A stretch of 64,000 nt of DNA, taken from an uncultured Gammaproteobacteria bacterium (GTDB taxonomy: Bacteria; Patescibacteriota; Patescibacteriia; UBA9934). The notes under the pieces were generated by a model that was not told where the DNA came from, ran no database searches, and saw only the letters and a list, made by a program, of their open reading frames with translations. Shown piece after piece: positions 12,263 through 35,349 of this stretch (the first letter of the stretch is position 1; the number at the start of each line of letters is the position of its first letter). Position numbers and translations under genes: made by a program. The stretch covers positions 200,895-264,894 of the forward strand of contig CAZTKG010000001.1 of assembly GCA_964613815.1 (NCBI GenBank). The letters run 5' to 3'.

Positions 12263-12408
12263 ATCCTGAGGAGGGAGAGCGCAGCCACGTCGCTCGCGAG
12301 CGACGTGGCGTAGCCGACTGACGGAAGGATCTCGTGCCGCGCGGCATGGACGTCGGTGTCCGTACGGGATCCTTCCGCCGAGGGGACCGCCCCCTCGACT
12401 CAGGATGG
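12263..12408. repeat. Family-2 nested-stem repeat, copy 1
   Basis: CCTGAGGAGGGAGAG ... CTGACGGAAGGATC, loop, GGGATCCTTCCGCCG ... CTCGACTCAGGATGG. Two nested inverted repeats, just upstream of the tRNA. Confidence 0.75.
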
Positions 12409-12492
12409 TGGACAACTTGACACGCCCCCTCCCCTTCGCTATCATCACGTCACGATTTCCCGCGCGACGCCTTGAAGTATTACGCGTATCAA

Positions 12493-12567
12493 GGCCCCAT
12501 CGTCTAATGGTTAGGACGCAAGGTTCTCATCCTTGAAATCGGGGTTCGATTCCCCGTGGGGTCACCA
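12493..12567 (+). tRNA. tRNA-Glu (anticodon CUC)
   Basis: Hand-folded cloverleaf: acceptor GGCCCCA/TGGGGTC, D-arm GTCT/GGAC, anticodon stem CAAGG/CCTTG with loop TTCTCAT (U33, CTC at 34-36), T-arm GGGGT-TCGATTC-CCCCG, encoded CCA. Confidence 0.8.
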
Positions 12568-12646
12568 AAAAACATGCACTTTGGTGCGTGTTTTTTGTTT
12601 TGACTTAACAAACAAAAAACTCAACCAAGCCAGGTTGAGTAGTTGA

Positions 12647-13600
12647 TCAATGAACCGTTTTCGTAGAGCTATCGATGTTCACGCTGGGAATGAAGTCGCC
12701 TGCATCTAGCGCTGCACCCCCCTGCGAAATCACTACGTCTGACGTGATCAAACTTGCAGTAAAAATCGCACCAACCGAAGCACCGATGTCTACTTCGATA
12801 ACGAGAGCGAGTGCACTTCCTGGCGTCATAGCTTCGTCAGCCTCAAAGATGACAGTCTGACATGCGTCGCTGTCGCCCGCGTCAGTGTCGAGCTCGAGTG
12901 GTCCAGCTATCACAGTTCCGCCACTTTCGGCTATCTTGAGATTTGTGATATTGCCGTGACCGCCCGTGTTGATTAGCCCGTCATCGTCTAGATCTGACGC
13001 ACCCGGGTCATCATCTTCCTCGTCAGGCGGATCACCATCTCCGTCGTCATCTGCGCAGAATTTTATCGGAACATCTTCCATCAGGACATCTGCATCTGAC
13101 GTGATGATGAGTTCTAGCAAGGATACATTGAGGTCTCCAGAAGATGCGTACCCTGCGCTTGGGCCGAGAGATACGATGATGATCTCCGCCGTGGGGCATT
13201 CGAGAATGCTCGCGTCGGTATCGTCGCAGTCGTCCGCGAGAATGAGTCCGTCATTGTCGAGATCGTCGTCTGGCGTTGTGATGTCACAATCGTTGTCGAA
13301 CGTGTCGTATGGAACCTCAGTGGCGCCGGGATTGATGTCTGCATCCGTGTCGTTGCAGTCTCTGGCACCACGTGCTCTCACGTAGCCAGTGACACTACGT
13401 AAACAAGTGTGTATCGCCCCGGGTGGAGAGCCGTAGCCGTCGCTGTCGCTGTCAGGAAGGTGCCATATGCGTCTTGATGCGTATGGATTTGGATTGAGCG
13501 GACGACAGTCCACCGCGTCTACAATTCCATCGTTATCAGCGTCGTTCTCAAGAGAGCCTGCAAAGGTGAATGCGATCAGAATCGGGAAAAAGAGCGTCAT
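12647..13600 (-). CDS. Secreted Asp-rich repeat protein, putative calcium-binding (thrombospondin-type-3-like DxDxDG repeats)
   Basis: Signal peptide MTLFFPILIAFTFAGS; repeated DNDGIVDAVDC / DSDSDGYG / DNDCD / DLDNDGL / DDDGDGDPPD motifs; many Cys. Confidence 0.6.
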   Translation of the reverse strand: MTLFFPILIAFTFAGSLENDADNDGIVDAVDCRPLNPNPYASRRIWHLPDSDSDGYGSPPGAIHTCLRSVTGYVRARGARDCNDTDADINPGATEVPYDTFDNDCDITTPDDDLDNDGLILADDCDDTDASILECPTAEIIIVSLGPSAGYASSGDLNVSLLELIITSDADVLMEDVPIKFCADDDGDGDPPDEEDDDPGASDLDDDGLINTGGHGNITNLKIAESGGTVIAGPLELDTDAGDSDACQTVIFEADEAMTPGSALALVIEVDIGASVGAIFTASLITSDVVISQGGAALDAGDFIPSVNIDSSTKTVH

Positions 13601-13929
13601 TTCGTATTCCTTTTTGGGGTTACTTGATGTGAGCGTGGTATAGCATTATTTCACCCTTTTGTCTAGCCTTTGGTGTGAAAGGGGTCAGGTCGTGTATCGT
13701 GACATTTTTGGAGCTTGCCTCATTGTGAAATGGTAGGATGAACAGCCCCCTATGCTGCGCCTGATTTTGAAAATTGTCACGATACACGACCCGACCCCAT
13801 CCACTACTCGATCATCGCCGCGATGTGCTATTACGCTGGAGCCACGGTCGCGACCCTCCGCTGAACGCCTCCGCCGCCCCATAGAGCGCCCTGCTCTGCG
13901 GGGCGTTTCTTTTTTTGACCCTGACCCTG

Positions 13930-14003
13930 CCCCATCTCGACCTTGTGGAGAGATCTTACCTCTGCGCTGTCCGAAGAGATCTCTCGGCTACGCTCGAGAT
14001 GGG
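13930..14003. repeat. Family-1 palindromic repeat, copy C
   Basis: cccatctcgaccttgtggagagatct, loop, agatctctcggctacgctcgagatggg. Confidence 0.85.
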
Positions 14004-14055
14004 AAGAGACATTTTCCAAAATTAAAACCGCAGAGCGAATCTGCGGGATGGGGGC

Positions 14056-14553
14056 TCAAGGGGAAGCGGACACGGGGATGGGGCTCAGGGGCAGCTCGGG
14101 CACGTGCAGCCAGGCTGGGATGGCGCGGCGGCGCCTGGACCAGTTGAGGAATGCGCGTGAGAGGCTCGCCATCCAGGTCAGGCCGACTTCGAAGTCGTTT
14201 GACTTGGCGTCTTCGTCCATGCCGGCGAGGTCGAACCCTTCTGGAGCGCGGTCGGGGAGCACCATACGCTGGCACTCGTACCCTGCACCGTCATCCAACT
14301 TGCGGATGCCGATGATTGCGCACGACTGACGAGGGTCTCTCCCCTGTGTGAGAACGAGCGAAACTGCGGTGCAGTCTGCGCGTTCTGAGGGGATGATGCG
14401 GAGGATCATGCCTGCGTGCTCTGCGGCGTTTCCGCGGAATTGGGCGTAGAGCCCGATCCTTCCGTATGCGGCAGCGAAGAGTTCCTGTGTCGCTTCCGAG
14501 ATGTCGTTCATGCAGTCTCCTTTTTTGCGAGAACGTGAGAGGGATATTGCCAT
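14056..14553 (-). CDS. Hypothetical protein
   Basis: 165-aa ORF; probable start at the internal MNDISEATQELF. C-terminal part runs through GC-rich repetitive DNA and may be over-called. Confidence 0.35.
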   Translation of the reverse strand: MAISLSRSRKKGDCMNDISEATQELFAAAYGRIGLYAQFRGNAAEHAGMILRIIPSERADCTAVSLVLTQGRDPRQSCAIIGIRKLDDGAGYECQRMVLPDRAPEGFDLAGMDEDAKSNDFEVGLTWMASLSRAFLNWSRRRRAIPAWLHVPELPLSPIPVSASP

Positions 14554-14602
14554 GGATTTTGTATTTTGTCAAGCCTGAGATTTCAATCTTGATTATTTCT
14601 GC

Positions 14603-14965
14603 ATGTTTGGTATATTTTTGATACTTCCCTGGAGAAGCATGTCACTTTCGTCTGCTATGGATCGGCTCGGTATCAGCGATGGACCCGGCCTTGCTCGGCA
14701 AAATGCGTACAAGAAGAAGCAGCTGGCTCATGCTCAAGCCGACGAGCAGGCCGAGGTCTTTCGCGGCATGAGCTATGCGGAGCAGTGCGCGTGGTGCAGA
14801 TCGCTCACGGAGAAGCCTGGGCTTTCGTGCTCTGATGCGATGAGAAGCGATGAGCTTGTGCAGGTCGCCGTCCATGACGAGCATACATGGCCCTTCCATC
14901 GTACGACGGCCTTTCTCGATATTTGGTCTGGTACGTACTACGGCTGGGCCCACGAACGCGTGTAA
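14603..14965 (+). CDS. Hypothetical protein
   Basis: 120-aa ORF divergent from the previous gene. No recognisable domain. Confidence 0.3.
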   Translation: MFGIFLILPWRSMSLSSAMDRLGISDGPGLARQNAYKKKQLAHAQADEQAEVFRGMSYAEQCAWCRSLTEKPGLSCSDAMRSDELVQVAVHDEHTWPFHRTTAFLDIWSGTYYGWAHERV

Positions 14966-15016
14966 CGCTCGGATGGGCGTTCTTTTTTTTGGATGAAAAA
15001 AGAGCCCAGATCGGGC

Positions 15017-15874
15017 TTATTCTTGTTCGTGTGCCTCGAGAAGCGGCGCAATTCCCTCTGTCTCCATTGCGGCGAGCATCTTCCAGTTCGCGTCGTCAAA
15101 GACCGTTGTATGCCCAACCAATCTCTTTCGCTGGCGGACGAGTGTTTCGGCTGTGACTTGGCTGCTGAGATCGATCTCTCCCAGTCGAGCCTCCGCGAGC
15201 ATCCCGTCCGCGATGGCGAACTCGGCGAGCCAGAATGCCTCTTCGTCCACATATGCGGCGTGAGCGCGCTCCGCGGCCTTCATGTCTCCCCTACCATGCC
15301 TTGCGCGTTCGCAGGCTATGTTCGATTGCTTCGCTTGGCTGTCGCCGTGACTTGTAATGATCGTGAAGACTCTTATGATCGCGGTTCGGCTGTCGGCATT
15401 GAATGCAGCTGTTCGAGTTCTAATGACATCGCCCGCCCTCTTGTTCAAATGCCTCGTTGCGGGGGCGTAGCCGTATGGCGCGAGGACTGTCCAGAAAAGG
15501 CGACTCCAAGCTGGCGTCTGCATGAGCCTTCGAAGACCGGTGAGGTCTTTTGATGCCTTGTCGATCTCTTCTTTGTTCATCTTGTACGTCAAGAGGTTGA
15601 ACAAGAGATAGAGCGTCACCACGAACATGGCGCTGAAGCTCATGCTGACCCTCATGAATAGCAGAACTGCGTAGGCTCCTGCCATGAGACTCGCGAGCCC
15701 ATTGAGCATGACTGTCCTTTGCTCGAAGACGGTGAGTAGCACTCTATCCTCACAAAGCTGAAAGAGATCGTCCAGGGCCTTGCGGATGTTTTTGAATGCG
15801 CCCATCTGTCCCGTGAGCGGCATGAATCGTCTGAAGTCGTACGGATGAGCTTCGGCTGCGATGTCGTCTGACAT
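15017..15874 (-). CDS. Hypothetical membrane protein
   Basis: 285 aa with hydrophobic helices in the middle (GLASLMAGAYAVLLFMRVSMSFSAMFVVTLYLLFNLLTY). No recognisable family. Confidence 0.45.
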   Translation of the reverse strand: MSDDIAAEAHPYDFRRFMPLTGQMGAFKNIRKALDDLFQLCEDRVLLTVFEQRTVMLNGLASLMAGAYAVLLFMRVSMSFSAMFVVTLYLLFNLLTYKMNKEEIDKASKDLTGLRRLMQTPAWSRLFWTVLAPYGYAPATRHLNKRAGDVIRTRTAAFNADSRTAIIRVFTIITSHGDSQAKQSNIACERARHGRGDMKAAERAHAAYVDEEAFWLAEFAIADGMLAEARLGEIDLSSQVTAETLVRQRKRLVGHTTVFDDANWKMLAAMETEGIAPLLEAHEQE

Positions 15875-15943
15875 TGTTTCTCCAAAAGAAAGAACGATAG
15901 GTTTAGCCTATCGTGTCAATCTATTTCTGACAAATGATAACCT

Positions 15944-16888
15944 CTACATCAAATTAAACAACTTCCCGATGAAGAGGGCGTAGATGACGAGGTACATCGC
16001 GCCTTCGTAGCTGTGCATGCGCTTGCTGATGCCTCCGATGATGAAGAGGAGGGTTGCGACGATGAGGACCGGGATACCAAGGGTTAGCGTGCTGTGGTCG
16101 ATCGCGATTGTTGTGAATAAGCCCGGGAGGCCAACGACGAGGAGGAGGTTGAAGACGTTTGAGCCGAAGATGTTTCCGAGGGCGACGTCTGACTTTCCTG
16201 CAAGCGCGGCTTTGACGGAGACGATGAGTTCTGGGAGCGATGTTCCGACCGCGACGGCTGCGAGAGAGATAGCCCCGACGCCGATGTCGAAAATGGTCGC
16301 GAGCTCGATGACGGAATCAACGAGGTACTTTGCGCCGAAAATGAGACCTAGGAGGCCGAGGATAAGGAAGAGGATGTCTGCGGCGACGATTTTTGGACGC
16401 TTTGCTTTCTTTTTTCTAGCGCGCTTTTTGGTGGACTCGTCTTTGTAGGTGATCGAGTAGATGAAATAGATGAAAAACGCAACCATGAGGAGCATGGACT
16501 CGATGCGCGTGATTTGTCCATCCATAGCAACGCCGAGGAAGAGGACGGTTGTTGCGGCAAGGAGCGGGAGGTCGAGGTCGATGAGGTCTTTTGAGACCAC
16601 GAGCTTCCGGCCGATGAGTGCACTAACTCCTACAACGAGGAGGATGTTGGCGATGTTGGAACCGATGGCGTTTGCGGCGACCATCTCTGTGACGCCCTGC
16701 ATGGTGGCAACGATGGATGAGATAACCTCGGGGAGCGAGGTTCCGAGGCCGACGATGACGACGCCGATGACGAAGGAAGAGAGCCCTGCGGCGAGGCCGA
16801 TTTTTTCGGCGCTTTTTAGGAGCCAGCCTGCGCCTTTGACGAGGACAACGAGGGATAACAAAAATACCCCCAGCCAGAATAGAATCAT
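15944..16888 (-). CDS. Ca2+/cation antiporter, CaCA family (YrbG-like)
   Basis: 314 aa; two homologous halves each with an alpha-repeat (GTSLPE...), cytoplasmic basic loop between them. Confidence 0.85.
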   Translation of the reverse strand: MILFWLGVFLLSLVVLVKGAGWLLKSAEKIGLAAGLSSFVIGVVIVGLGTSLPEVISSIVATMQGVTEMVAANAIGSNIANILLVVGVSALIGRKLVVSKDLIDLDLPLLAATTVLFLGVAMDGQITRIESMLLMVAFFIYFIYSITYKDESTKKRARKKKAKRPKIVAADILFLILGLLGLIFGAKYLVDSVIELATIFDIGVGAISLAAVAVGTSLPELIVSVKAALAGKSDVALGNIFGSNVFNLLLVVGLPGLFTTIAIDHSTLTLGIPVLIVATLLFIIGGISKRMHSYEGAMYLVIYALFIGKLFNLM

Positions 16889-16922
16889 ATGCTAGGAGTA
16901 TATCATGTCGGTCAACCTCGAA

Positions 16923-17021
16923 GAGATCTCTCCACTCCCTTTGGTCGGTCGAGATGGGGGGCGGAGGGACTTGTTAATAAACACGTTCCGCCCTCTCCCA
17001 TCTCGACCTTGTGGAGAGATC
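16923..17021. repeat. Family-1 palindromic repeat, copy D (arms in tail-to-tail order)
   Basis: gagatctctccactccctttggtcggtcgagatggg...loop...ccctctcccatctcgaccttgtggagagatc. Lies immediately 3' of the GIY-YIG gene. Confidence 0.85.
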
Positions 17022-17027
17022 TTGCAG

Positions 17028-17318
17028 CTATACAATGTAAAAATACAAATCCCTCCTCTCTTTATTCGTCCTGTCGATCAACCAATCCTTCTTTTTTCGT
17101 GACCACTTCTTCAATTGGATCTCACGCTCTCTTGCGCCGTCGTAATCACCTCCGGCTTCGAAGTAAACGAGTTTTGTTGCGTTGTATTTCTGTGAAAAAC
17201 CTTCGACTGCCTTTGCTTTATGTTCGTGCACTCTGCGGATAAGATCACTTGTGCAGCCAATGTACAGCACCGTATCGCCCGGGTTGGCCATGATATATAT
17301 GCAGTATTCCTCCTCCAT
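17028..17318 (-). CDS. GIY-YIG nuclease family small protein
   Basis: YCIYIMANPGDTVLYIGCTSDLIRRVHEHK... is the GIY-YIG catalytic module. The ORF-track start at 17345 lies inside repeat copy E, so the start is moved to the ATG at 17318 (MEEEYCIYIM). Confidence 0.75.
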   Translation of the reverse strand: MEEEYCIYIMANPGDTVLYIGCTSDLIRRVHEHKAKAVEGFSQKYNATKLVYFEAGGDYDGAREREIQLKKWSRKKKDWLIDRTNKERRDLYFYIV

Positions 17319-17333
17319 AAATAAAGATAATAC

Positions 17334-17414
17334 CCCCTCTCCCATCTCGACCTTGCGGAGAGATCTTGCGCCTGCCGCTATCAGATCTCTCGACTACGCT
17401 CGAGATGGGAGGGG
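17334..17414. repeat. Family-1 palindromic repeat, copy E
   Basis: cccctctcccatctcgaccttgcggagagatct, loop, agatctctcgactacgctcgagatgggagggg. Immediately 5' of the GIY-YIG gene. Confidence 0.85.
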
Positions 17415-17424
17415 TGCGGAAGAT

Positions 17425-17700
17425 CTATTTTAACTTTTCAATGATCTCCGGAATATCATTCACCGACACCTCCCCGAGCCATTCATTGTTCGGCATGACG
17501 ATGACTGTCACGCCCGTGAGACAGTTGCCGAGGCAGGAGCTTTTGATGACGCGGACGTCTGTATATTCTGCTGCTGCAGCCATTTTGAGTTCGTGGTAGA
17601 GATTTTCTGACCCGCGCTTCATGCAGCAGTCCATGTCGCCCTCGCGCTCACGTTGGCAGACGAGGACGAGTTTTCGGAAGGGATTATTTGCTGGAATCAT
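17425..17700 (-). CDS. Thioredoxin-like [2Fe-2S] ferredoxin
   Basis: 91 aa with Cys spacing C-x(10-12)-C...C-x3-C (VLVCQ...DCC...SSCLGNC) matching thioredoxin-fold [2Fe-2S] ferredoxins. Confidence 0.55.
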   Translation of the reverse strand: MIPANNPFRKLVLVCQREREGDMDCCMKRGSENLYHELKMAAAAEYTDVRVIKSSCLGNCLTGVTVIVMPNNEWLGEVSVNDIPEIIEKLK

Positions 17701-18442
17701 TTTGGACGGATTTACTGAATGTTTCGAAGGCTTTTACGACCTCAAGCGGAATCGCGAAGATGACCGTGTTTGACTGGTCGGATGAGAGGTCGTTTAGGGT
17801 TGAAAGCGTTCGAAGGTGGAGGGCGCCTGGAGACTTTGCGAGCATTGTCGCTGCTTCTTTGAGGTTTGTTGCTGCCTGCACCTCTCCCTGTGCCTTGATG
17901 ACGACAGCGCGTCGCTCTCGCTCTGCCTCTGCTTGTTTTGCGATTGTTCGCTTCATTTCTTCTGGAAGCGTGATGTCTTTGAGCTCAACATTATCAACCT
18001 GAATTCCCCACGGGTCTGTGAGCGAATCTACGAGTTCTTTGATCTTTCTTGATGCCTCATCTCGCTTTGTGAGGAGTTCGTCGAGATCCATCTCTCCCAC
18101 AACGTTCCGCATGGTTGTTTGCGCGAGTTGGGATACCGCGTGCTTGAAGTGCTCTACTTCGATGATGGCCTTTTCTGCATCTTTGACCTTGTAGTAGAGA
18201 ACCGCGTTGATGCGTGCGGAGATATTGTCTTTTGTGATCGCTTCTTGATCTGGCACATCAACCGCTTTGACGCGGATGTCGACCTTTTTCATGGACTGAA
18301 AAACGGGAATCACGAGACGCCATCCTGGCTGGAGCGTCTTTGTGTAGCGACCGAGCTGAAATTTGACCCCTCTTTGGTATTCGTTGATTTGGCGAATGCT
18401 AATGAGAATTATAAAAACGACGAGGTAAATCAAGTATTGCAT
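17684..18442 (-). CDS. SPFH/band-7 (stomatin/prohibitin-like) membrane protein
   Basis: N-terminal TM helix, then the band-7 core (NEYQRGVKFQLGRYTKTLQPGWRLVIP...DVPDQEAITKDN) and C-terminal coiled coil. Confidence 0.85.
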   Translation of the reverse strand: MQYLIYLVVFIILISIRQINEYQRGVKFQLGRYTKTLQPGWRLVIPVFQSMKKVDIRVKAVDVPDQEAITKDNISARINAVLYYKVKDAEKAIIEVEHFKHAVSQLAQTTMRNVVGEMDLDELLTKRDEASRKIKELVDSLTDPWGIQVDNVELKDITLPEEMKRTIAKQAEAERERRAVVIKAQGEVQAATNLKEAATMLAKSPGALHLRTLSTLNDLSSDQSNTVIFAIPLEVVKAFETFSKSVQNDSSK

Positions 18443-18452
18443 ACGCTTCGGT

Positions 18453-19235
18453 TTAGATTATGATCAAAATGATGATCGCTACCGCAATTCGGTAAAGCGA
18501 GAACCAACCGTAGCTGATTTTTGCCACCATTGCAAGGAGAAAACGTATGGCTAGAGTCCCCGCAAAGAAGGCGGAGATGAAGCCAGCGATGATGATTGGG
18601 AGGGGGGTTTCTAGACCTGTCGTGATGACATCGAGGAAGGTGACGAGGCCTGCGCCGGCGATTGCAGGTATGGCGAGGAGGAAGGAGAAGCGGGCGGCGG
18701 CGGTTCTTGAGAGGCCGGCGAGGAGGCCTCCGGTGATGGTGATGCCTGAGCGTGATGTTCCTGGGATGAGGGCGAGCATTTGCATGCAGCCGATGGCGAT
18801 TGCTTTGGTCCAGGTGAGGGTTTCGATGTTTTCTGTGGTCTTTTTGGATGAGGCGAATCTGTCGGCAGCCCAAAGCGCGATACCCCAGACGATGAGGCCT
18901 GTAGCGATGGCTTCTGGGGAGCGTATGAGGTCGATATCGAATACTGATAGGGCTACGCCGAGAATGCCCACTGGGATGGTTGCGATGATGATTTTGGCGA
19001 GGAGGGAGTTTTCTTTCTTGGTTTTGCAGGTTTTGATGAGGTCGGCGATGTCGGTCCTGAGAACCCAGATGATGGCGAGGAGGGTTGCGACGTGGACGGC
19101 GACGTCAAAATCCATCCCCTGCTCGGACCAGCCGAGGAGCTTGGGGATGAAGATGAGGTGGCCCGAAGAGGAGATCGGAAGGAATTCCGTGATCCCCTGG
19201 ACGGCGCCGAGGATGATGGGTTCGAGGAGTTGCAT
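18453..19235 (-). CDS. uppP: Undecaprenyl-diphosphatase UppP/BacA
   Basis: 260 aa polytopic; conserved BacA motifs (GITEFLPISSSGHL; PGTSRSGITITGGL). Confidence 0.9.
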   Translation of the reverse strand: MQLLEPIILGAVQGITEFLPISSSGHLIFIPKLLGWSEQGMDFDVAVHVATLLAIIWVLRTDIADLIKTCKTKKENSLLAKIIIATIPVGILGVALSVFDIDLIRSPEAIATGLIVWGIALWAADRFASSKKTTENIETLTWTKAIAIGCMQMLALIPGTSRSGITITGGLLAGLSRTAAARFSFLLAIPAIAGAGLVTFLDVITTGLETPLPIIIAGFISAFFAGTLAIRFLLAMVAKISYGWFSLYRIAVAIIILIII

Positions 19236-19250
19236 GCGTGTTTTTGACGT

Positions 19251-21302
19251 CTACTCTCCTGTCTTTTTGATCGGTGGGAGGGGTGAGATCTCGCCGCTTG
19301 GCCTTGACTTGGCCGGCGCAGCATTGCTCGTTTCAGACCTTGGTCGGCGATCTTCTTCTGGCTTTCGGCGTCTTCGGCGGCGCTTTCTTGGCTGTCTGCC
19401 CGCAGATTCTGATGAAGTCTGTGGCGACTTTTGATCCTGCTCTGGTTTTTCTTCCTGTTTTAGCACCGCCTCTTTTGGCCTGGGTTTTTCTTGGTCAAAT
19501 TTAAGAGGAGTTGGTGCATCTACAGGCCTTGATTCTTGTTTTGCGACTGGCTTTGATGTGGGCACCTTTCGAGGCTCTTTGCGCTCTTCTTTCTTATCTG
19601 CTGGCGCTGCTAATGCGGAAAGTGAGATACTCTCCCCCACTTTTCGCTCGATCGGCTTGCTGTTTTCGATCTTTGGCTGTGGAGCTAGCGCTGGACGGTC
19701 CTGTCGAGGCGGTCGATCGTTTCGTGGTCGATCTTCTCGTGGTCGATCCTGCCGGCCCTGATCGCTGCGCGGAGGCTTTTGATCTCGCCCTCGATCGCGT
19801 CCGCCTCCGCCCTTTCGCCCCTTTTCTCGCTCTGCCTTGATTTTAGGCATGCAGTCTTCGCAGTAGATTGGCCTTGATCTGTCGAGTTCAACCGGGAGCT
19901 GGAAGTTCTTTTTGCATCCTGAACAGTCGTACGCGTGCCCAAAGCGCTGCTTCTTCATCTCCTTCTTCTTTGTTTTTGCCTTGGCGTATTCGTCGTCCAA
20001 GTCCACATCTTTTCCAAAACCACTCCAAATAGCGACCTTTTCTTCGATCTTGGCTCGCGGCGTCGTGTAACGCTCGCGTGACTGAGCAATGACCCGCTCT
20101 TCCGAGCCTGTCTTTTGTGCGATTGGTGGGAGCGTTGCTGCGGAGAACGGCTGCGATGTGACGCCATCGATCATTAATTTAAGATAAATGTTGAACTTTG
20201 GGAGGTTGATGATGTCCTCCGGTGTGAACCGTGGGAGGAATTCGTCTTCCATGAACTTTGCATCTGGACCACCCACGCGGAATGCAATCAGGGTCCCGAC
20301 GTTTCCAAATACTGCGTCTCGCACCTCTTCCGTGAGTTGTGCGATATACTGGTGCGCCATGACAAGGTTGAGTTTGTATTTTCGCGCCTCAGATAAGATT
20401 GATGCGAATGACTCAACAGCAAAGTTTTGAAACTCATCAACGTAGAGATAAAAGTCTGTTCTATCATCTTTTGCAGTGTCGACACGTTCCATCGCGGACA
20501 TCTGGATCTTGGTGATAAGCATTCCTCCAAGGAGGCGAGACGCGTCCTCTCCAAGTCGCCCCTTTGAAAGGTTTACGATGAAGATTTTTTCCTCGTCCAT
20601 GATCTTTCGAACGTTGATGGAGGAATTTGCTTGCGCGACAATGTTTCGAATAATTGCTGCGGACAAAAACTGACCGACCTTGTTTTGAATCGGCGCTACC
20701 GCCTCGGTGGCGAATTTTTGTTGGTAGGAGGCGAACTCTTTGACCCAGAATTGTTTGACAATTGGATCTGTGACATTTGAGACGATTTCTTTTCTATAGA
20801 CCTCGTCTGAAAGCATGCGGTTGATGCCGAGGAGGGTTGTTCCAGGGTTGTCGATAAGGGCAAGAATGGCGTTGTTGAGGATGTATTCCATTCGTGCAGA
20901 CCAGACGCCTTCCCAGATTTTTTTGAAGACACTCATCATGCCCGCTGCGACGAGATGCTTCATGTTGGCGTCGACGGATTCGAGAATGTTGAATCCGACT
21001 GGATGTTCCAGGTCGCCTGGATTGAAGTAGACGACGTCGTTGATACGCCAGGATGGGATGTAGTCGAGGAGGAGCTCTGCCGTGTCTCCGTGTGGGTCGA
21101 CGTATGCACAGCCGTGGCCGGCGTAAATATCGGACAGGATCATGTTCTCGAGGAGCGTCGTCTTTCCCATGCCGGTTTTTCCGATGACGTAGGTGTGACG
21201 GCGGCGATCATCTGTTTTAATGCCAAATTTCCGCAAGGAGTTGCGGAAGTTTGTTTTGGCAAAATAGATAATGTCGTCTTCGTGTTCGTGCGGATATTGC
21301 AT
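19251..21302 (-). CDS. VirD4/TraD/TrwB-like coupling-protein ATPase with C-terminal zinc ribbon and Arg/Asp-rich tail
   Basis: Walker A VIGKTGMGKTT, Walker B FYLYVDEFQNF, sensor region VMAHQYIAQL. C-terminal CSGCKK...CEDC zinc-ribbon-like and an RDRGRDQKPPRSDQGRQDRPREDRPRNDRPPRQDRP low-complexity tail. Confidence 0.7.
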   Translation of the reverse strand: MQYPHEHEDDIIYFAKTNFRNSLRKFGIKTDDRRRHTYVIGKTGMGKTTLLENMILSDIYAGHGCAYVDPHGDTAELLLDYIPSWRINDVVYFNPGDLEHPVGFNILESVDANMKHLVAAGMMSVFKKIWEGVWSARMEYILNNAILALIDNPGTTLLGINRMLSDEVYRKEIVSNVTDPIVKQFWVKEFASYQQKFATEAVAPIQNKVGQFLSAAIIRNIVAQANSSINVRKIMDEEKIFIVNLSKGRLGEDASRLLGGMLITKIQMSAMERVDTAKDDRTDFYLYVDEFQNFAVESFASILSEARKYKLNLVMAHQYIAQLTEEVRDAVFGNVGTLIAFRVGGPDAKFMEDEFLPRFTPEDIINLPKFNIYLKLMIDGVTSQPFSAATLPPIAQKTGSEERVIAQSRERYTTPRAKIEEKVAIWSGFGKDVDLDDEYAKAKTKKKEMKKQRFGHAYDCSGCKKNFQLPVELDRSRPIYCEDCMPKIKAEREKGRKGGGGRDRGRDQKPPRSDQGRQDRPREDRPRNDRPPRQDRPALAPQPKIENSKPIERKVGESISLSALAAPADKKEERKEPRKVPTSKPVAKQESRPVDAPTPLKFDQEKPRPKEAVLKQEEKPEQDQKSPQTSSESAGRQPRKRRRRRRKPEEDRRPRSETSNAAPAKSRPSGEISPLPPIKKTGE

Positions 21303-23844: not shown

Positions 23845-23845
23845 A

Positions 23846-27004: not shown

Positions 27005-27028
27005 ATGCGTGTTGATGCCCTGCAGCCA

Positions 27029-27139
27029 CCCTGAGGATAGAGAGACCTTGCTCTCTGACGGAAGGATCTCTTGGCATGGCAGTGCCGCGCGGTGGGGGAT
27101 CCTTCCGTCGGGGGCGATATTCCCCCTCCTCAGGATGGG
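27029..27139. repeat. Family-2 nested-stem repeat, copy 2
   Basis: CCCTGAGGATAGAGAG...CTGACGGAAGGATC, loop, GGGATCCTTCCGTCGG...CCCCCTCCTCAGGATGGG. Confidence 0.75.
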
Positions 27140-28183: not shown

Positions 28184-28185
28184 AT

Positions 28186-28220
28186 CACCCCACCTCGACC
28201 ACGGTGGAGATGGGGTGAAA
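28186..28220. repeat. Family-1-related solo hairpin
   Basis: caccccacctcgaccacggtggagatggggtg (variant of cccatctcgacc...ggagagat) forming its own hairpin. Confidence 0.4.
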
Positions 28221-28333
28221 ATACGTCATGATTACGCTTTTGACCTCTCCTTCTTGACAAAATTACTATTTTGTGATATCTTTGTATGTTCCCAAGTACC
28301 TTCCCTGAACTGCGACTGCCCATAGGAGGCAAT

Positions 28334-28624
28334 ATGTTCGCTATCTTCGCCCGCGTCTCGGCCCCGGCCAAGACCCTCGAGCGCGCCAATGCGCTCGTCA
28401 ACTCCGACGCCGCTGACGAGACCGCAAAAGCGCGTTTGAGCCCGCAAAAGCGTGCGGATCTGTGGCTCATGGCCGCGTTATACGCCTTCGCTTCCGTGCT
28501 CTTCTCGCACCCGTTCGCGGGCGCGAACGTCGCTGGCCCGATCGGCGCCCTGCTGATTCTTCCGTTCGTTGAGCACTGCCTGAAGTGCTGGTGGCGGGTC
28601 GACTACACGCCCACTACGAGCTGA
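28334..28624 (+). CDS. Hypothetical small membrane-associated protein
   Basis: Start chosen at the ATG preceded by AGGAGGcaat (MFAIFARVSAPAK...); the ORF-track start is 28286. Hydrophobic C-terminal half. Confidence 0.4.
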   Translation: MFAIFARVSAPAKTLERANALVNSDAADETAKARLSPQKRADLWLMAALYAFASVLFSHPFAGANVAGPIGALLILPFVEHCLKCWWRVDYTPTTS

Positions 28625-28647
28625 TCCTAGCATCAGCTCGTGGCCGC

Positions 28648-28680
28648 TCACCCCCAGAAATGGGGGTGATTCTTTTTCTC
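28648..28680 (+). terminator. Rho-independent terminator
   Basis: cacccccagaaatgggggtg stem-loop followed by attctttttctc. Confidence 0.5.
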
Positions 28681-28784
28681 TTGTTCATGTAGACTTGACA
28701 GAATCTCTTTGCTGTGGTAGTCTACGTTGTCGGCCTGGGAAACCTCCCGGCCACAACCTGAGTCCTTGCGGCTCAAGGAGAATA

Positions 28785-28868
28785 CATGGGCACGATGATC
28801 AACGACGGCGACAACTACGGCGCCATCTGGAACACCTCCCGCACCCGACCCAGCGTCACGCGACGCTG
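28785..28868 (+). CDS. Possible 27-aa peptide (MGTMINDGDNYGAIWNTSRTRPSVTRR)
   Basis: AAGGAG Shine-Dalgarno 6 nt upstream of the ATG; precedes two small membrane-protein genes. Speculative. Confidence 0.2.
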
Positions 28869-29006
28869 ACCCCCTACGAGGTCATCCTCGCTCTACCCTG
28901 CTCGGCGTTTGGCCCTCTGCGCCTACGCCGAGTGAATTATTTTCTACGACATTTCAGTGCATAGATGTAGCGTCGTTTGACGGATCATCTGTTCATTGGA
29001 GGTAAA

Positions 29007-29318
29007 ATGAACCCCCGTCGCCCGACGTCACCCTTTGATGTCACCACCCTTGTCACCCTTAGCGGGTCAGATGCAGCTCGGGCTGATACGCTTCTGTGGT
29101 ATACGCTTGGTGGAGCATTTCCTACATTTGCCATGCTCGCCGCGATTGCGGTCTGTACGGCATTCGTTCACGAGATGCATCCGGACCGTTTGGACATAGC
29201 ATGTGTCATTCTCCGAGATCTCGATAAGGTCATCTTTCCAGCCATCATGGCTGCTGCCATCCTCGTCGGCGTGATCAATGGTCAGTACCATGCTCGTCGA
29301 CGCCATGGAATACCGTGA
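29007..29318 (+). CDS. Small hypothetical membrane protein
   Basis: Start at the ATG preceded by GGAGGtaaa (MNPRRPTSPFDV...); ORF-track start 28977. Two hydrophobic helices. Confidence 0.4.
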   Translation: MNPRRPTSPFDVTTLVTLSGSDAARADTLLWYTLGGAFPTFAMLAAIAVCTAFVHEMHPDRLDIACVILRDLDKVIFPAIMAAAILVGVINGQYHARRRHGIP

Positions 29319-29554
29319 TGCCTGGCGATCACCATGTCCGCAGAGGCACCGTAGCTTTTGTCATCGCACTGCTACTGATCCTGCTCCTGCCTTTCGGGCA
29401 GGCCGCAGCATCACAACTCCCGATGATCGCGCCACATATCTTCCCTCTCGAAACTCCATGGGGACGGGTTGGCATGATTCTCGGAGCCATGATCTGTTCG
29501 TCCGTGATGGGCGGGATGATCATTGGCCACGCGCTATGCCGCCGACTTCTCTAG
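29315..29554 (+). CDS. Small hypothetical membrane protein
   Basis: 79 aa, ATGA overlap with the previous gene, two hydrophobic helices. Confidence 0.4.
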   Translation: MMPGDHHVRRGTVAFVIALLLILLLPFGQAAASQLPMIAPHIFPLETPWGRVGMILGAMICSSVMGGMIIGHALCRRLL

Positions 29555-29629
29555 CCCGACCATTCGCTCCCTTGAGCGTCTGGTCGGTATTTGTTTGCAA
29601 AAAAGACGGCTCAATCGCCGTCCTTTTCT

Positions 29630-32353
29630 CTATTTCCCGCAACACTGCTTATACTTCTTTCCACTTCCACACGTGCATGGCTTGTTGCGCCCAGTTTTCT
29701 GATCTGCGGATTTGATGATTGCCGCTGCTGCCCCCATTGTCTTCCTTGCTCCAGCAAACTGTAGGCGCGCTTTTTCTAGAATTGATGGCGCGAGCTTGAT
29801 CACCTGCTGGGCCTTGAGCGTCTGCCCGAGGATTTTGAAGATGTTGTAGACCACTTCTCGACGAATGGATTGCTGAAGGGCGCTGAAGTGCTCAAATGCC
29901 TCGCGCTTGTACTCAACGAGTGGGTCGCGCTGACCATATCCTCGAAGACCGATTGATCTACGAAGATAAGTCATTGTGTCGAGATGACTGACCCAGGCGT
30001 TGTCGATTGAACGGAGAATGACTCCCTTTTCTAACTTCTTGAGCTGACTCTTGTCTTCAAATGCTTCCTCCGCCTTGTCGAGGCGCGTGTTTATGACAAC
30101 CATCGTCCCCTCGATGACCTCTGTGCGAATTTCTGCAAGACGCTCTTTGTCCTTTGGAATTTCTGGAAGCGCTGTTTTGATTTTTCCTGCGAGCTCTTCT
30201 GGCAATACTGTAATCGTACCAAGTGCTTCTATGATTTCTTTTGGGTCCCAATCTCCTCGGTTTTTTTCTTGGAACTCCTTTGGTACATCATCTGTCGCTT
30301 CTGTGGTGTGAAAATGGACGATGCGTTCCACCTCGGCCTCAATCATGCTTGAGATTTCTTTTTTGGCGTCAAACTCGTCGTCTTTTACCATCTCTCGCCG
30401 CTTGTCGTAGATACCTGTCCGGTGTTTGTTTAGGACATCATCGTAGTCGAGGAGATGTTTTCGCACGTCAAAGTTGCGGCCCTCAACGCGGGACTGGGAC
30501 TTTTCTAGGGTCTTGGAGATAATCTTACTTTCGATTGGTACAGTCTCTTCAACTCTGAGGGTGTCCATGACTTTTGCGACGCGGTCACCTCCGAAGATAC
30601 GCATGAGGTCATCTTCTAACGATACGTAAAATTGTGTTGTTCCAGGATCCCCCTGACGACCGGCTCGCCCTCTAAGCTGGTTGTCGATCCGCCGCGATTC
30701 GTGCCGTTCGGTTCCGATGACGTGCAGGCCGCCGAGATCTTTGACCTCTTGTTGCTCTTCTGACGTAGATGGGTTCCCTCCGAGGACAATGTCGACTCCA
30801 CGTCCTGCCATATTTGTTGCGACGGTTATTGATCCTTTTTTTCCTGCCTGGGCGATGATCTGACCCTCGCGTTCGTGATTCTTTGCGTTGAGCATCTCAA
30901 ATTTGAGACCGGCTTCCCTGAGCATGTTACCGATGAGCTCGTTCTTTTCGATGGAGGCGGTTCCGATGAGGACGGGCTGCCCCCTTTCCTGACGTTCTTT
31001 TGCTTCTGCGATGATACTCATGAGCTTTCCGCGCTCGGTCTTGTAGACGCGGTCAGCGCTATCATTTCTCGCAATTGGTTTATTTGTTGGAATAACGAGA
31101 ACATCTAGATCATAAATCTTTGCAAACTCTTCTGCCTCCGTTGCCGCTGTTCCGGTCATTCCTGAGAGCTTCGTGTACATCCGAAAGTAATTTTGGAACG
31201 TGATCGTGGCGAGGGTCTTACTTTCTCGTTTGATTTCTACCCCCTCTTTTGCCTCGATCGCTTGGTGAAGACCCTCTGAATACCGACGACCTTCCATGAT
31301 GCGACCAGTGAATTCATCAACGATTTTTACTTGCCCCTCTTGGATGACGTAGTCCTTGTCTTTTCTAAAGACAGCGTGTGCCTTTAGCGCCTGCTCTGCG
31401 TGGTGGATGAGAGCGAGACCTCCTTCTGAGTAAAGGTTTTCTACGCCGAGCTTCTTCTCCATCTTTTCGATTCCAGCGTCGGTGAACGTTGCGACGCGCA
31501 TTTTTTCGTCGATGTTGAAGTCCTCATCTTCTTTGAGGTCCTGCGCGATGCCTGCGAATTTGTAGTACATCTCGCCAGACTCTTCTGCCGGGGCACTGAT
31601 GATAAGCGGCGTTCTCGCCTCGTCGATGAGGATAGAGTCGATTTCGTCGATGATAGCGTAGTTTAGGTCGCGCTGAACCATGCGCTCCTTGGTTGGCGCC
31701 ATATTGTCACGAAGATAGTCGAAGCCGAATTGGTTGTTTGTGCCGTAAGTGATGTCGGCGTTGTAGGCATCTGCTCGCTCAGCTGGACGAAGGTAGTCCA
31801 TCTGGACTTTGAATGAGCCTGTGTTGTTTTGGTCTTGATGATCTTCTGCCTTCCAGGACTCGTCGTAGATGTAGCCACCTTCCTGCTGAATGCAGCCAAT
31901 GGAGAGACCGAGGAACGCGAATACCTGCCCCATCCACACAGCGTCACGCTTCGCTAGGTAGTCGTTTACGGTGATGAGGTGTACGCCTTTTTCTGACAGG
32001 GCGTTTAGGTATGTCGAAAGTGTTGACGTGAGCGTTTTCCCTTCTCCGGTGCGCATTTCTGCGATCATGCCGCGGTGCATGGAGAGCCCGCCGATGATTT
32101 GGACGTCGTAGTGGCGTTGACCGAGAGTTCGCATACCAGCCTCTCGCACGACAGCAAAGGCTTCGTAGGCAATGTCGTCTAGGGTTTTGCCGTTTTTGAT
32201 TGCTGTTTTGAATTCTTCTGTTTTTGCCTTGAGTTGGTCGTCTGATAGTGCCTTGATGCCTGATTCTAGGGCATTTACCTGTTCTACCTCTTCTCGTAGG
32301 GACTTGAGAAGCTTTTTATTGGGGTCTCCGAAGATTTTGGTGAGGATGCTCAT
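29630..32353 (-). CDS. secA: Preprotein translocase ATPase SecA
   Basis: 907 aa; DEAD-motor motifs, preprotein cross-linking and helical scaffold domains, C-terminal zinc-binding tail CTCGSGKKYKQCCGK. Confidence 0.97.
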   Translation of the reverse strand: MSILTKIFGDPNKKLLKSLREEVEQVNALESGIKALSDDQLKAKTEEFKTAIKNGKTLDDIAYEAFAVVREAGMRTLGQRHYDVQIIGGLSMHRGMIAEMRTGEGKTLTSTLSTYLNALSEKGVHLITVNDYLAKRDAVWMGQVFAFLGLSIGCIQQEGGYIYDESWKAEDHQDQNNTGSFKVQMDYLRPAERADAYNADITYGTNNQFGFDYLRDNMAPTKERMVQRDLNYAIIDEIDSILIDEARTPLIISAPAEESGEMYYKFAGIAQDLKEDEDFNIDEKMRVATFTDAGIEKMEKKLGVENLYSEGGLALIHHAEQALKAHAVFRKDKDYVIQEGQVKIVDEFTGRIMEGRRYSEGLHQAIEAKEGVEIKRESKTLATITFQNYFRMYTKLSGMTGTAATEAEEFAKIYDLDVLVIPTNKPIARNDSADRVYKTERGKLMSIIAEAKERQERGQPVLIGTASIEKNELIGNMLREAGLKFEMLNAKNHEREGQIIAQAGKKGSITVATNMAGRGVDIVLGGNPSTSEEQQEVKDLGGLHVIGTERHESRRIDNQLRGRAGRQGDPGTTQFYVSLEDDLMRIFGGDRVAKVMDTLRVEETVPIESKIISKTLEKSQSRVEGRNFDVRKHLLDYDDVLNKHRTGIYDKRREMVKDDEFDAKKEISSMIEAEVERIVHFHTTEATDDVPKEFQEKNRGDWDPKEIIEALGTITVLPEELAGKIKTALPEIPKDKERLAEIRTEVIEGTMVVINTRLDKAEEAFEDKSQLKKLEKGVILRSIDNAWVSHLDTMTYLRRSIGLRGYGQRDPLVEYKREAFEHFSALQQSIRREVVYNIFKILGQTLKAQQVIKLAPSILEKARLQFAGARKTMGAAAAIIKSADQKTGRNKPCTCGSGKKYKQCCGK

Positions 32354-32401
32354 AATGGGGCTATTGTGCGGGATTTGAGCTTAATTATCAAGGGTTGACA
32401 G

Positions 32402-32523
32402 CACTCCCCATCTCGAGCGTAGTCGAGAGATCTCACGGTATAGCGATGCTGGTGTTTCTATTTGTGACAGTCATGACGCACTCCCCCGAAGAGATCTCTC
32501 GACTTCGCTCGAGATGGGAAGGG
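32402..32523. repeat. Family-1 palindromic repeat, copy F (long loop, extra direct repeat gcactcccc at both arms)
   Basis: cactccccatctcgagcgtagtcgagagatctc ... cactcccccgaagagatctctcgacttcgctcgagatgggaaggg; between hpf and secA. Confidence 0.85.
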
Positions 32524-32537
32524 ACGAAAAAAGAGGC

Positions 32538-32843
32538 TTATCGCCTCTCTTTGTATTGCTTTATCTGCCGTTTGAGCTCGTCGGTGACCTTGTCGATGGA
32601 TGCGTAGAGGTCTTCTGTTGTTGCCTCTGCGCGTAGCATCTTTCCTGGGATGGTGAGGTTCACCTCTGCCTTGAAGATCTTCCCTTTTGTCTTTTGCCTT
32701 GCCGTCTTGCCGACATCGACTCTGACATCGCATGGCGATAGGCCTTCTGTGAGTTTTGCGACCCCCTCGATCTGCTTTTCGACCCTTGCCCGAATGGCGG
32801 GTGTTACGTCTAAATGCGTGCCGTGAATGGATACGATTCTCAT
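32538..32843 (-). CDS. hpf: Ribosome hibernation promoting factor / RaiA (short form)
   Basis: 101 aa, MRIVSIHGTHLDVTPAIRARVEKQIEG... matches the YfiA/HPF family. Confidence 0.85.
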   Translation of the reverse strand: MRIVSIHGTHLDVTPAIRARVEKQIEGVAKLTEGLSPCDVRVDVGKTARQKTKGKIFKAEVNLTIPGKMLRAEATTEDLYASIDKVTDELKRQIKQYKERR

Positions 32844-32860
32844 ATCGTTTTGGCTACGAA

Positions 32861-33826
32861 TTATTGAATATATTGTACCTCGTCATGGAGGTTGATGCCG
32901 AATTGCTCCTTTGCCTGTTCTTTGACGTGGTTTACGATCGCCATGACATCCTCAGCTTTCGCCTCCCCGAGATTCACGACGAAGTTGCCGTGCTCGTCGC
33001 TGATTTTGGCGCCGCCGACTTGGTACCCTTTGAGGCCCATTTGGTCGATGATCCAGCCGGAGCTGAGGCGCATGGATTTGATCATTGGCTCTGGGATGTC
33101 TAGCTTGGTTTTGATGGATTCTAGCTCTTCTTGTGACACGATGTCGTAGTTTTTGAACATGCAGCCGGCAGAACCTGCGTAGAGAGGTTGGGAGGATTTT
33201 CTGGCGTTGAGATGGTCGGTGAGCTTTGCCTTGAGTTCTTCGGCCTTGCCGGGCTTGAGCTCTAATGTTGCTTCGAGGACGATATCTTCTGAGTGCTTGA
33301 TGGCGGACTCTCGGTAGCCGAAGTTGAGATCTACTGCTTGGATGTCGATGACTTCATGGTTGCGGAGGATTTTTACCGATGTTACCGAGTCCTTCATTTC
33401 TCCACCGAAGCAGCCAGCGTTTCCTCTGACGGCGCCACCGATGGTGCCCGGGAGGGAGATGGCCCATTCGAAGCCCTCTAGACCTGCCGATGCGGTGATT
33501 CTGGCGAGGGCGGCGGAGATCATGCCTGCGCCTGCAGTAACGGTCGTGTCCGTGATTTGATGATCTCGGAGGGCGAGCTTGATGCATGCGCCGCGGAAGC
33601 CTTCATCGGCAACCAAGGTGTTTGATCCTCCGCCGAGGATGAAGTAGCGGACATCTTCATCTGACATCACCTTGATTGCGTGCTGGAGCTCCTCGATAGT
33701 TCTGACTTCGATGAACAGATCAGCAGGGCCTCCGATGCGAAAATTTAGATGCTTTGCGAGAGGCTCGTCTTGTTTAACGCGGTCTGTTGAGATCTTTTTT
33801 GCGAGTTTTTTGATCGTTTCTTCCAT
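32861..33826 (-). CDS. murB: UDP-N-acetylenolpyruvoylglucosamine reductase MurB
   Basis: FAD-binding domain (NFRIGGPADLFIEV...ILGGGSNTLV) and MurB C-terminal domain. Start set at the internal ATG 33826, because the ORF-track extension would overlap murC. Confidence 0.9.
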   Translation of the reverse strand: MEETIKKLAKKISTDRVKQDEPLAKHLNFRIGGPADLFIEVRTIEELQHAIKVMSDEDVRYFILGGGSNTLVADEGFRGACIKLALRDHQITDTTVTAGAGMISAALARITASAGLEGFEWAISLPGTIGGAVRGNAGCFGGEMKDSVTSVKILRNHEVIDIQAVDLNFGYRESAIKHSEDIVLEATLELKPGKAEELKAKLTDHLNARKSSQPLYAGSAGCMFKNYDIVSQEELESIKTKLDIPEPMIKSMRLSSGWIIDQMGLKGYQVGGAKISDEHGNFVVNLGEAKAEDVMAIVNHVKEQAKEQFGINLHDEVQYIQ

Positions 33827-33827
33827 A

Positions 33828-35138
33828 TTATTTTTTGTATTCTCTTGCGAGCGTGTCGATTGCGCCGGCACCCATGTAGATAATGACGTCGCCTTCGGTC
33901 TTGATTTTGTTGATTTGATCACGCACGGCGTCGAAGTCCTTTGCGTAGATTACCTCCTCTACGGTGTTTTGTTTTTTGATGAGGTCAGCGAGGTCTTTTG
34001 ATGACTCGTACTTTTCTTCTGTGCGGCCGGCGACTTCGTAGACTTCTGAGAGGATGAGGACATCGGTCTTGTCGAAGACGTGCTTGAAATCATCAAATAG
34101 CTCGTGGGTTCTGGAGTGCTGATGAGGCTCGTAGACGGTGATGATACGGCGGCGTTCGAAGGTTTCTCTGTAGGCGCTCAGGGAGGCGTTGATCTCTGTT
34201 GGGTGATGGGCGTAGTCGGAGTAGACATCGGCCCCGTCGAAGTTGCCGATGTACTCGAATCGACGCCAAGTGCCCCTGAAGTTTCTCAGTGCTGTACAAA
34301 TGACCTCACTGTCGATATTGAGATACTTTGCCACAGCGACCGCTGCAGAAGCGTTTATCGCGTTGTGCTCACCAGGGTATTGCAACTCAAAGACCTCGTC
34401 ACCTACAGTGAACTCGCCCGGTCCGCGTGCATCAATACCGAAGGCTGTACCGTTTTTTATAGTCAGTTTTGATGAGATCTCATCTCCCGTTAGAGTGAAG
34501 ACTTGACTCTCTTCTGGCATGGCATCAATCCATTTCTGGAAAGTCTCTTGGATGTGGTCAATGTCCCTGTAGAAATCTAAATGATCTGCTTCGATATTGG
34601 TTATGACAGCTATTTCGGGGATGATTTCGAGCATGCTTGCCATGTATTCACATGCTTCGACGACAAACCAGTCACCTTCCCCGATTCTAACATTGCCCCG
34701 ATTCAAGCCGATGACATTTGTTCCGACGATGACGGTGGGGTCAAGACCGGCCTCCGTCAATACCGCCGCAATCATTGCCGTCGTCGTGCTCTTGCCGTGA
34801 GTTCCGCTTACCGCGATAACCCTATAACTTTTTGCAAGTTCGCCGAGAAACTGAGGATAAGACATCAGCGTGATTCCACGTGACTTTGCAGCTTTACGTT
34901 CTGAATTTGATTCTGGAATCGCTTGCGTGTAGATTACGAGATCACAGTCTTTTGGGACGTTGCTTTCTTTGTGGCTGATTTTTATTGTTGCGCCTGCTTC
35001 TTTTGCGGCGTCGGTGATTTCTGATTGGGCCATGTCAGATCCTGATACTTTTGCGCCTCGAGCGAGCCACCACTTTGCTACTGCGGACGTGCCGATTCCG
35101 CCAATGCCTATAATGTGGACGTTTTTTGCGTTTTTCAT
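33828..35138 (-). CDS. murC: UDP-N-acetylmuramate--L-alanine ligase MurC
   Basis: N-terminal HIIGIGGIGTSAVAKWW, Mur-ligase P-loop GTHGKSTTTAM, C-terminal domain. Confidence 0.92.
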   Translation of the reverse strand: MKNAKNVHIIGIGGIGTSAVAKWWLARGAKVSGSDMAQSEITDAAKEAGATIKISHKESNVPKDCDLVIYTQAIPESNSERKAAKSRGITLMSYPQFLGELAKSYRVIAVSGTHGKSTTTAMIAAVLTEAGLDPTVIVGTNVIGLNRGNVRIGEGDWFVVEACEYMASMLEIIPEIAVITNIEADHLDFYRDIDHIQETFQKWIDAMPEESQVFTLTGDEISSKLTIKNGTAFGIDARGPGEFTVGDEVFELQYPGEHNAINASAAVAVAKYLNIDSEVICTALRNFRGTWRRFEYIGNFDGADVYSDYAHHPTEINASLSAYRETFERRRIITVYEPHQHSRTHELFDDFKHVFDKTDVLILSEVYEVAGRTEEKYESSKDLADLIKKQNTVEEVIYAKDFDAVRDQINKIKTEGDVIIYMGAGAIDTLAREYKK

Positions 35139-35242
35139 ACCTCTAGTTTATCCCCTTTGCGCCATATTCGTAAAGATGCGAAAATGCGGTCAATATGTTG
35201 CGCGATCCTACAGTCTAGTGTTTTTTCTTGCTTTGAGCGCGG

Positions 35243-35349
35243 AGATCCTTCCGGCGTGCTAGGGCTGGCACGCCTCAGGATGGGAATAGCTCAGCAACGA
35301 TTCTCCCCATCCTGAGGAGGGGGATAGTCGCCCCTGACGGAAGGATCCC
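35243..35349. repeat. Family-2 nested-stem repeat, copy 3 (stems in swapped nesting order)
   Basis: gcgcggAGATCCTTCCGG...CCTCAGGATGGG, loop, CCCATCCTGAGGAGGG...CTGACGGAAGGATCccgcgcgc. Located in the murC/glyA divergent intergenic region. Confidence 0.75.

Follow-up and report, generated by a model that had tools for sequence, protein, structure and literature searches.

Three intergenic elements in a Patescibacteria scaffold are probably inverted doublets of an Ssn-related hairpin module

A 64,000-nucleotide stretch of contig CAZTKG010000001.1 (positions 200,895 to 264,894; hereafter the window), part of the 579-kb marine metagenome scaffold ERZ23498905 scaffold_2 from a Patescibacteria bacterium, contains three intergenic elements that a sequence-only reading had described as copies of one structured element of about 110-140 bp, with two nested stems and no recognised class. 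Analysis of these elements indicates that they are probably inverted doublets of a hairpin module related to the repeats of the Ssn nucleases, and that they most likely belong to a known repeat-nuclease system rather than to a new RNA. The window also encodes an Ssn homologue, proposed as the nuclease partner of the repeats, whose gene (ssn) is bordered on both sides by a sister repeat family.

Ssn proteins are small GIY-YIG site-specific nucleases that act on single-stranded DNA (ssDNA) only (Chenal et al. 2025, Nat Commun, PMC11893778). Their targets are hairpin repeats, the NTS CGTCATTCCCGCGMAVGCGGGAATCYRG or, in a wider sense, Ssn-related motifs (SRM), which they bind and upstream of which they cleave at a distance of a few bases; as a rule, the ssn gene is bordered by its own repeats. 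The key base for binding is the C immediately after the palindrome, while the upstream three bases govern cutting. The loop sequence of the SRM is dispensable and the stem may be split or lengthened, and residues Y6, Y17 and E64 are required in Nm SsnA (Fig. 3 legend of the same paper). The SRM search pattern of that paper was compiled manually from 29 genomes (PMC11893778), and it is best taken as a search tool, not as a definition.

The repeated unit of the three elements (family 2) was found to be a half-element of 39-70 nt, here termed the module, which comprises CCATCCTGAGG, a variable hairpin and then CGGAAGGATC. Its layout is a head, (y)CC-CATCCTGAGG, followed by an insert of 23-54 nt and a tail, CGGAAGGATC-C/T; in order, the consensus reads yCC, C-ATCCT, the purines GAG, a G-closed variable hairpin, CGGA, AGGAT and C. 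In copies 1 and 2 a module is followed by a spacer and a reverse module, such that the tails point inward, and in copy 3 a reverse module is followed by a spacer and a module, with the heads inward. The element of 110-140 bp is repeated as had been claimed, its true unit being the module and each copy being an inverted pair. The three copies are as follows.

12262-12407: copy 1, tails-inward doublet upstream of tRNA-Glu(CUC); module 12262-12331 (plus strand), spacer 12332-12367, module 12368-12407 (minus strand)
27027-27137: copy 2, tails-inward doublet between the NUDIX and tRNA_bind (csaA-like) genes; module 27027-27068 (plus strand), spacer 27069-27097, G5 module 27098-27137 (minus strand)
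35244-35347: copy 3, heads-inward doublet in the murC/glyA divergent spacer; module 35244-35282 (minus strand), spacer 35283-35307, G5 module 35308-35347 (plus strand)

Both the positions of the copies and their gene contexts agree with the sequence-only reading, and the motif pairs are present far above chance. Allowing one mismatch at most, CCATCCTGAGG occurs 7 times in the window against 1.15 expected (none of 100 shuffles reached 7), and six of these seven matches are the paired arms of the three copies. Similarly, CTGACGGAAGGATC was found 5 times with up to two mismatches (0.65 expected) and GGAAGGATC 7 times exactly (1.19 expected). The -35 hexamer of the tRNA-Glu promoter lies 9 bp downstream of the end of copy 1. 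Copy 2 lies between the NUDIX stop codon (27166) and the start of the tRNA_bind gene (27004), both genes being on the minus strand.

The six half-elements have CATCCTGAGG and CGGAAGGATC in common and differ in their inner hairpins. Every copy combines two sorts of module. One, the G5 module, has the tail GATCCC and a GGGGG...CCCCC inner hairpin (in copy 1 this is the minus-strand module, with its G-rich/C-rich inner hairpin); its partner has the tail GATCTC and an inner hairpin that is unrelated. Between copies 2 and 3 the G5 modules share 91% identity, while the partner modules are unrelated; because of these unrelated inner hairpins, the three elements are not recent copies of a single master of 110-140 nt. 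The inserts form hairpins of their own (z -2.0 to -3.8), the longest being the 54-nt insert in the plus-strand module of copy 1 with an 11-bp hairpin inside. In copy 2, the head of the plus-strand module is CACCCTGAGG, with one mismatch, and that of the G5 module is CC-CATCCTGAGG. The heads of copy 1 are degenerate, reading TA-CAT and AC-CAT as opposed to CC-CAT. The C following AGGAT, which corresponds to the base that is key to Ssn binding (PMC11893778), is invariant in the family 2 modules (6/6), and the AT...AT frame is intact in five of the six.

All three copies are predicted to fold into four-way junctions, at -92 kcal/mol (z-score -7.6) for copy 1, -70 kcal/mol (-6.0) for copy 2 and -59 kcal/mol (-5.4) for copy 3. 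These folds confirm the two nested stems and their swapped order: in copies 1 and 2 the CCTGAGG stem encloses the GGAAGGATC stem, and in copy 3 it is the GGAAGGATC stem that lies outermost. The two stems are the pairing of head with head and of tail with tail between two inverted modules, and the swapped nesting is the geometric outcome of placing the modules head-to-head or tail-to-tail. Within the long-range stems, all departures from consensus were unmatched in the partner arm and no compensatory change was observed; examples are a T-to-C change in the copy 2 head, a G-to-T change in copy 1 and, before the tail, TGA versus CGG/CGA/GCC. No selection on long-range pairing as such is indicated.

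Covariation was assessed in an alignment of 5 modules from the window and 23 from other genomes, in which the outer stem is invariant because it had been fixed by the search pattern. The inner hairpin showed changes on both sides in six of its seven pairs and gave a covariation score of 0.295, compared with 0.092 in shuffles (0/500 reached 0.295) and a maximum of 0.143 in slid controls. Structural conservation resides in the module itself, for which the Ssn model predicts a hairpin whose loop is free to vary. Thus, of the selected structure that had been proposed, the non-random structure-forming palindromes are upheld, and selection of the long-range stems, said to be maintained under rearrangement, is not, covariation being confined to the inner hairpin.

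The ssn homologue encodes a 96-aa single-domain GIY-YIG protein, and doublets of a second repeat family (family 1), the module of which is CC-CATCTCGA...GAGAGATC-T, border the gene on both sides. A third related doublet lies elsewhere in the window.

17031-17318: minus strand, ssn homologue (Pfam PF01541, E=8e-14)
16925-17021: family 1 heads-inward doublet directly downstream of the ssn stop codon, modules CC-CATCTCGACC...GGAGAGATC
17343-17407: family 1 tails-inward doublet directly upstream of the ssn start
7359-53432: span of the other family 1 modules, at 7359 (single), 10224/10271, 13933/13978, 32409/32493, 36695/36750, 39991/40011 and 53355/53374
10224-10294, 13933-14001, 32409-32516, 36695-36773 and 39991-40034: examples of the extents of family 1 doublets
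10747-10858: third related doublet with the canonical GTCAT head, GTCATCCAGAGCGAAGCGTGGGATCC ... GGATCCTTCGCTGCGCTCAGGATGAC

In a tblastn search with the window protein against the chromosome of N. gonorrhoeae, a match was obtained at E=7e-18 over 95% of the query, and the two proteins are 43% identical over a gapless 91 aa. The Tyr, Tyr and Glu residues corresponding to Y6, Y17 and E64 of Nm SsnA are conserved, the segments IYI, LYIG and RE aligning with VYI, LYIG and RE. The N. gonorrhoeae ssn gene itself stands among 7 exact copies of the NTS, and several of these copies form inverted doublets with a separation of about 54 nt. NCBIfam returned no model for the 96-aa protein, and the closest solved structure is that of a distant UPF0213 protein, 1ZG2. 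The N. gonorrhoeae record NZ_CP119142.1, a 2.17-Mb chromosome, is filed in the collection as a plasmid, which is a labelling error. Two kilobases from ssn, a 683-aa protein (19251-21302, minus strand) has the domains of a TrwB/TraG-type coupling protein (T4SS-DNA_transf and TrwB_AAD_bind); the presence of an ssDNA transfer or uptake function beside a single-strand nuclease gene may be noteworthy.

Family 1 is represented by 17 clean modules inside the window and by another 4 in the 8.3 kb upstream of it, and the pattern search gave 43 raw matches against about 0.8 in shuffled sequence. Its modules are arranged as nine tails-inward doublets, one heads-inward doublet (16925/16999) and one single module; for comparison, family 2 has two tails-inward doublets and one heads-inward. 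The module at 53374-53432 bears a long inserted hairpin. Both families are built on the frame yCC-C-AT(CYY)...(RRG)AT-C, with a CC-CAT head and a GAT-C tail, and the 5-bp outer stem is compensated between them, being ATCTC/GAGAT in family 1 and ATCCT/AGGAT in family 2. The third doublet (10747-10858) has the ATCCT/AGGAT core of family 2 without the inserted hairpin. Together, the three families account for about 25 modules in the 64-kb window, all of them intergenic. At approximately one module per 2.6 kb, this repeat load is high for a reduced Patescibacteria genome.

Repeats of the same kind were found at ssn loci of other organisms. Frames of the form YGTC-AT...AT-CY lie within about 600 bp of the gene at nine of eleven such loci. 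In Planktothrix agardhii, which carries the closest plasmid-borne ssn homologue (52% identity), GTCATCCTGA[ATGTAGCGAAGCGAAAT]GAAGGATCT, with a 17-nt insert, is present on both sides of ssn and is arranged tails-inward with a second module type. A Cytophagales metagenome-assembled genome (MAG) has GTCATCCTGA[..]CGGAAGGAT about 80 bp downstream of ssn, the Shinella locus has GTCATCCTCGGG..CCCGAGGATCC, the Spirosoma locus has a doublet with a hairpin spacer, and one metagenome ssn homologue has a family 1 core with an inserted hairpin nearby. Family 2 would be tied to ssn by the frame and head that it shares with family 1, and by the presence of the same core, CATCCTGA...GAAGGATC, flanking ssn in Planktothrix and a Cytophagales MAG.

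The core CATCCTGAGG..CGGAAGGATC was additionally scanned for in one genome per species, and the figures given here are those among the matches listed. These fell in Acidobacteriota, Cytophagales, deltaproteobacteria and others, with the host absent. GT precedes 102 of the 158 CATCCTGA..GAAGGATC modules, about 6% being expected from base composition. Doublets in other phyla were tails-inward in 13 instances and heads-inward in one, the same bias as in the window, and single modules rather than four-way junctions were the common form. As a separate observation, the published SRM pattern misses the core GTCATCCTGAGG-hairpin-CGGAAGGATCT, which is widespread among Acidobacteriota, Cytophagales, deltaproteobacteria and further groups (with examples from MAG CAWIFH01). 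One Cytophagales MAG contains dozens of near-identical copies of the core within longer units whose flanks are mosaically recombined.

Comparison with the NTS and the SRM shows several similarities. In both cases an oriented hairpin has a short 5' tail, a palindrome starting with AT and a C directly after it, with a variable loop; many copies are intergenic (about 25 modules in the window); inverted doublets occur, also around the Neisseria gene; the nuclease gene is bordered by repeats on both sides (by family 1 in the window); and the protein is a single domain of about 95 aa with conserved Tyr, Tyr and Glu. Family 2 differs in having a CC-CAT head, not GT-CAT. Furthermore, a purine-rich internal loop and an inserted hairpin of 23-54 nt interrupt its stem, the three copies of family 2 are all doublets of two unlike modules, and the host belongs to the Patescibacteria, a group absent from the main text of PMC11893778. 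The sequence-only reading recognised no known riboswitch or ncRNA class, and the element indeed matches nothing in Rfam, but it does fit the Ssn-related repeats (PMC11893778), with an ssn homologue in the same window.

Several observations weigh against assigning family 2 to the Ssn system. The published pattern, HGTCWYN(0-2)YYVSBRHN(0-5)WNVSBRGN(0-2)RNCYNB, matched nothing on either strand of the window, even when given a yCCCAY head; the same script returned 8 matches around the Neisseria gene. The upstream three bases are CCC, not GTC, and CC precedes CAT in only three of the six family 2 modules; the other three may perhaps have decayed. When the modules were folded as isolated ssDNA, the expected outer stem with hairpin was the minimum-energy fold in only two of six, and the long-range fold of the doublet, which is far more stable, would bury the heads in duplex. 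In the window, it is family 1 alone that adjoins the ssn gene, and family 2 modules do not. Finally, among 114 loci chosen by motif alone, only one had ssn within 8 kb, a result that a large number of repeats per gene would lead one to expect, yet one that offers no positive support.

The chances that the neighbouring Ssn itself acts on the family 2 modules appear evenly balanced. Were it to do so, Ssn would bind the modules when the DNA is single-stranded, as in replication, repair or DNA uptake, and would cut a few bases upstream of them. Such activity could either spread the repeats, in the manner of REP sequences and their transposase, or restrict incoming ssDNA as in Neisseria. A broader proposal combines three parts: that the specificity of Ssn has shifted from a GTC to a CCC head, that the doublets of unlike modules are non-autonomous REPIN-like mobile units driven by a GIY-YIG nuclease, and that GTCATCCTGAGG-hairpin-CGGAAGGATCT represents a large unrecognised branch of Ssn substrates. 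Taken jointly, we consider these to be speculative and unlikely to hold together.

If the assignment is correct, a candidate new structured RNA is removed and the element joins a system first described in 2025. That system would be extended to a marine Patescibacteria bacterium with a reduced genome, and to modules that carry a covarying hairpin inserted in the stem. The CCC head departs from the Neisseria one at precisely those three bases that are reported to control cleavage there; should the encoded enzyme cut these modules, it would represent a new specificity in a family proposed as an ssDNA-cutting tool. Additionally, the CATCCTGAGG...GGAAGGATC core is common in several phyla and is missed by the published pattern, such that existing repeat counts may be too low.

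The best-surviving alternative, although an improbable one, is that the modules are REP/BIME/REPIN repeats mobilised by a RAYT transposase (IS200/IS605-like) encoded elsewhere, the presence of the GIY-YIG gene being coincidental. The resemblance is considerable: both are short, imperfect, intergenic palindromes that form hairpins in single strands, inverted pairs are formed in both possible orders and have mosaic spacers, and in both a partner gene is bordered by the repeats. Moreover, only 72 kb of the genome was examined. REP palindromes carry a conserved GTAG/GGAG tetranucleotide at the 5' end. The modules have no such head, theirs being yCC-CATC, or GT-CATC in other phyla, and no Y1 or other transposase domain was found among the called genes of the window and the 8.3 kb upstream, RAYT being absent from these 72 kb. 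In this window, as in nine other organisms, the repeats border a gene that is an ssn homologue of the GIY-YIG kind and not a Y1 transposase. The sequence-only reading had itself named origin from an insertion sequence as the finding that would count against its structure, and the outcome lies close to this, with repeats tied to a mobile-element-like gene and no transposase in the window.

A structured non-coding or cis-regulatory RNA, in which the four-way junction is the functional unit, would account for the very stable folds (z -5.4 to -7.6) and for the location of copies 2 and 3 near gene starts, possibly within 5' leaders. However, the opposite strands of the copies give folds of about the same quality (z -5.3 to -6.5), no substitution in the long-range stems has a compensating partner, the order of the stems is variable, and single modules are commoner than four-way junctions in other genomes among the matches listed. 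The elements are placed inconsistently with respect to transcription units, copy 1 lying upstream of the tRNA promoter and hence outside the tRNA transcript, and a terminator-like tail is absent at the elements. Rfam searches of the whole window at the gathering threshold, together with permissive searches around the three copies, returned only tRNA-Glu and noise. An RNA function for the junction is thus most improbable. Readings of the elements as hammerhead, k-turn or attC were also considered and dropped, the core bases that define each of these being absent.

The least probable of the alternatives is an origin of the copies from an insertion sequence, as miniature inverted-repeat transposable elements (MITEs) in which the module would serve as terminal inverted repeat: their length (105-146 bp), terminal inverted repeats of about 40 nt and intergenic location are suitable, but no target-site duplication is visible at the borders of the three copies, the two arms of each copy have unrelated inner hairpins, the reversed order of the arms in copy 3 is incompatible with a MITE, and no parental insertion sequence is present in the window. 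All other contigs of the same organism match the window either completely or at 99.96-99.98% identity, and the one indel among them is an assembly gap with Ns. No close relative exists; the nearest MurC from another organism (named Patescibacteria/Uhrbacteria) shares only 57% identity, and consequently there is no comparable murC/glyA spacer for an empty-site comparison. One metagenome scaffold of the same organism has, at its own positions 12866-12963, a run of Ns in G+C-rich flanks; the corresponding site of the window (38240-38262) is a short hairpin, and the run probably arose as an artefact of assembly at a palindrome.

Neisseria dRS3 (ATTCCC-N8-GGGAAT), which is the palindromic core of the NTS, and the Correia, ERIC and RUP elements are likewise high-copy intergenic palindromes near genes. 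The sequences of Correia, ERIC and RUP are unrelated to the Ssn-related modules described here, which are directional and lack target-site duplications. A literature search with the motif sequence string returned only primers, a metagenome scan with the host-specific pattern gave 12 matches that were all chance or coding, and no further family 2 copy was found in the 8.3 kb upstream of the window.

Three further repeats in the window were recorded. An unrelated inverted repeat at 13675-13804 (GTGAAAGGGGTCAGGTCGTGTATCGTGACATTTTT / reverse), whose 35-nt arms have 89% complementarity and are separated by 60 nt, lies just 5' of a minus-strand MopE-like gene (12647-13600). A tandem array at 51821-52025 consists of four 45-bp units, with 60-89% identity to the reference copy. 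Lastly, TTGACAAAA-N-TTTTGTG-TAT..T occurs in three copies (28254-28282, 36839-36867 and 43379-43407) and resembles a shared strong promoter motif with a palindromic spacer.

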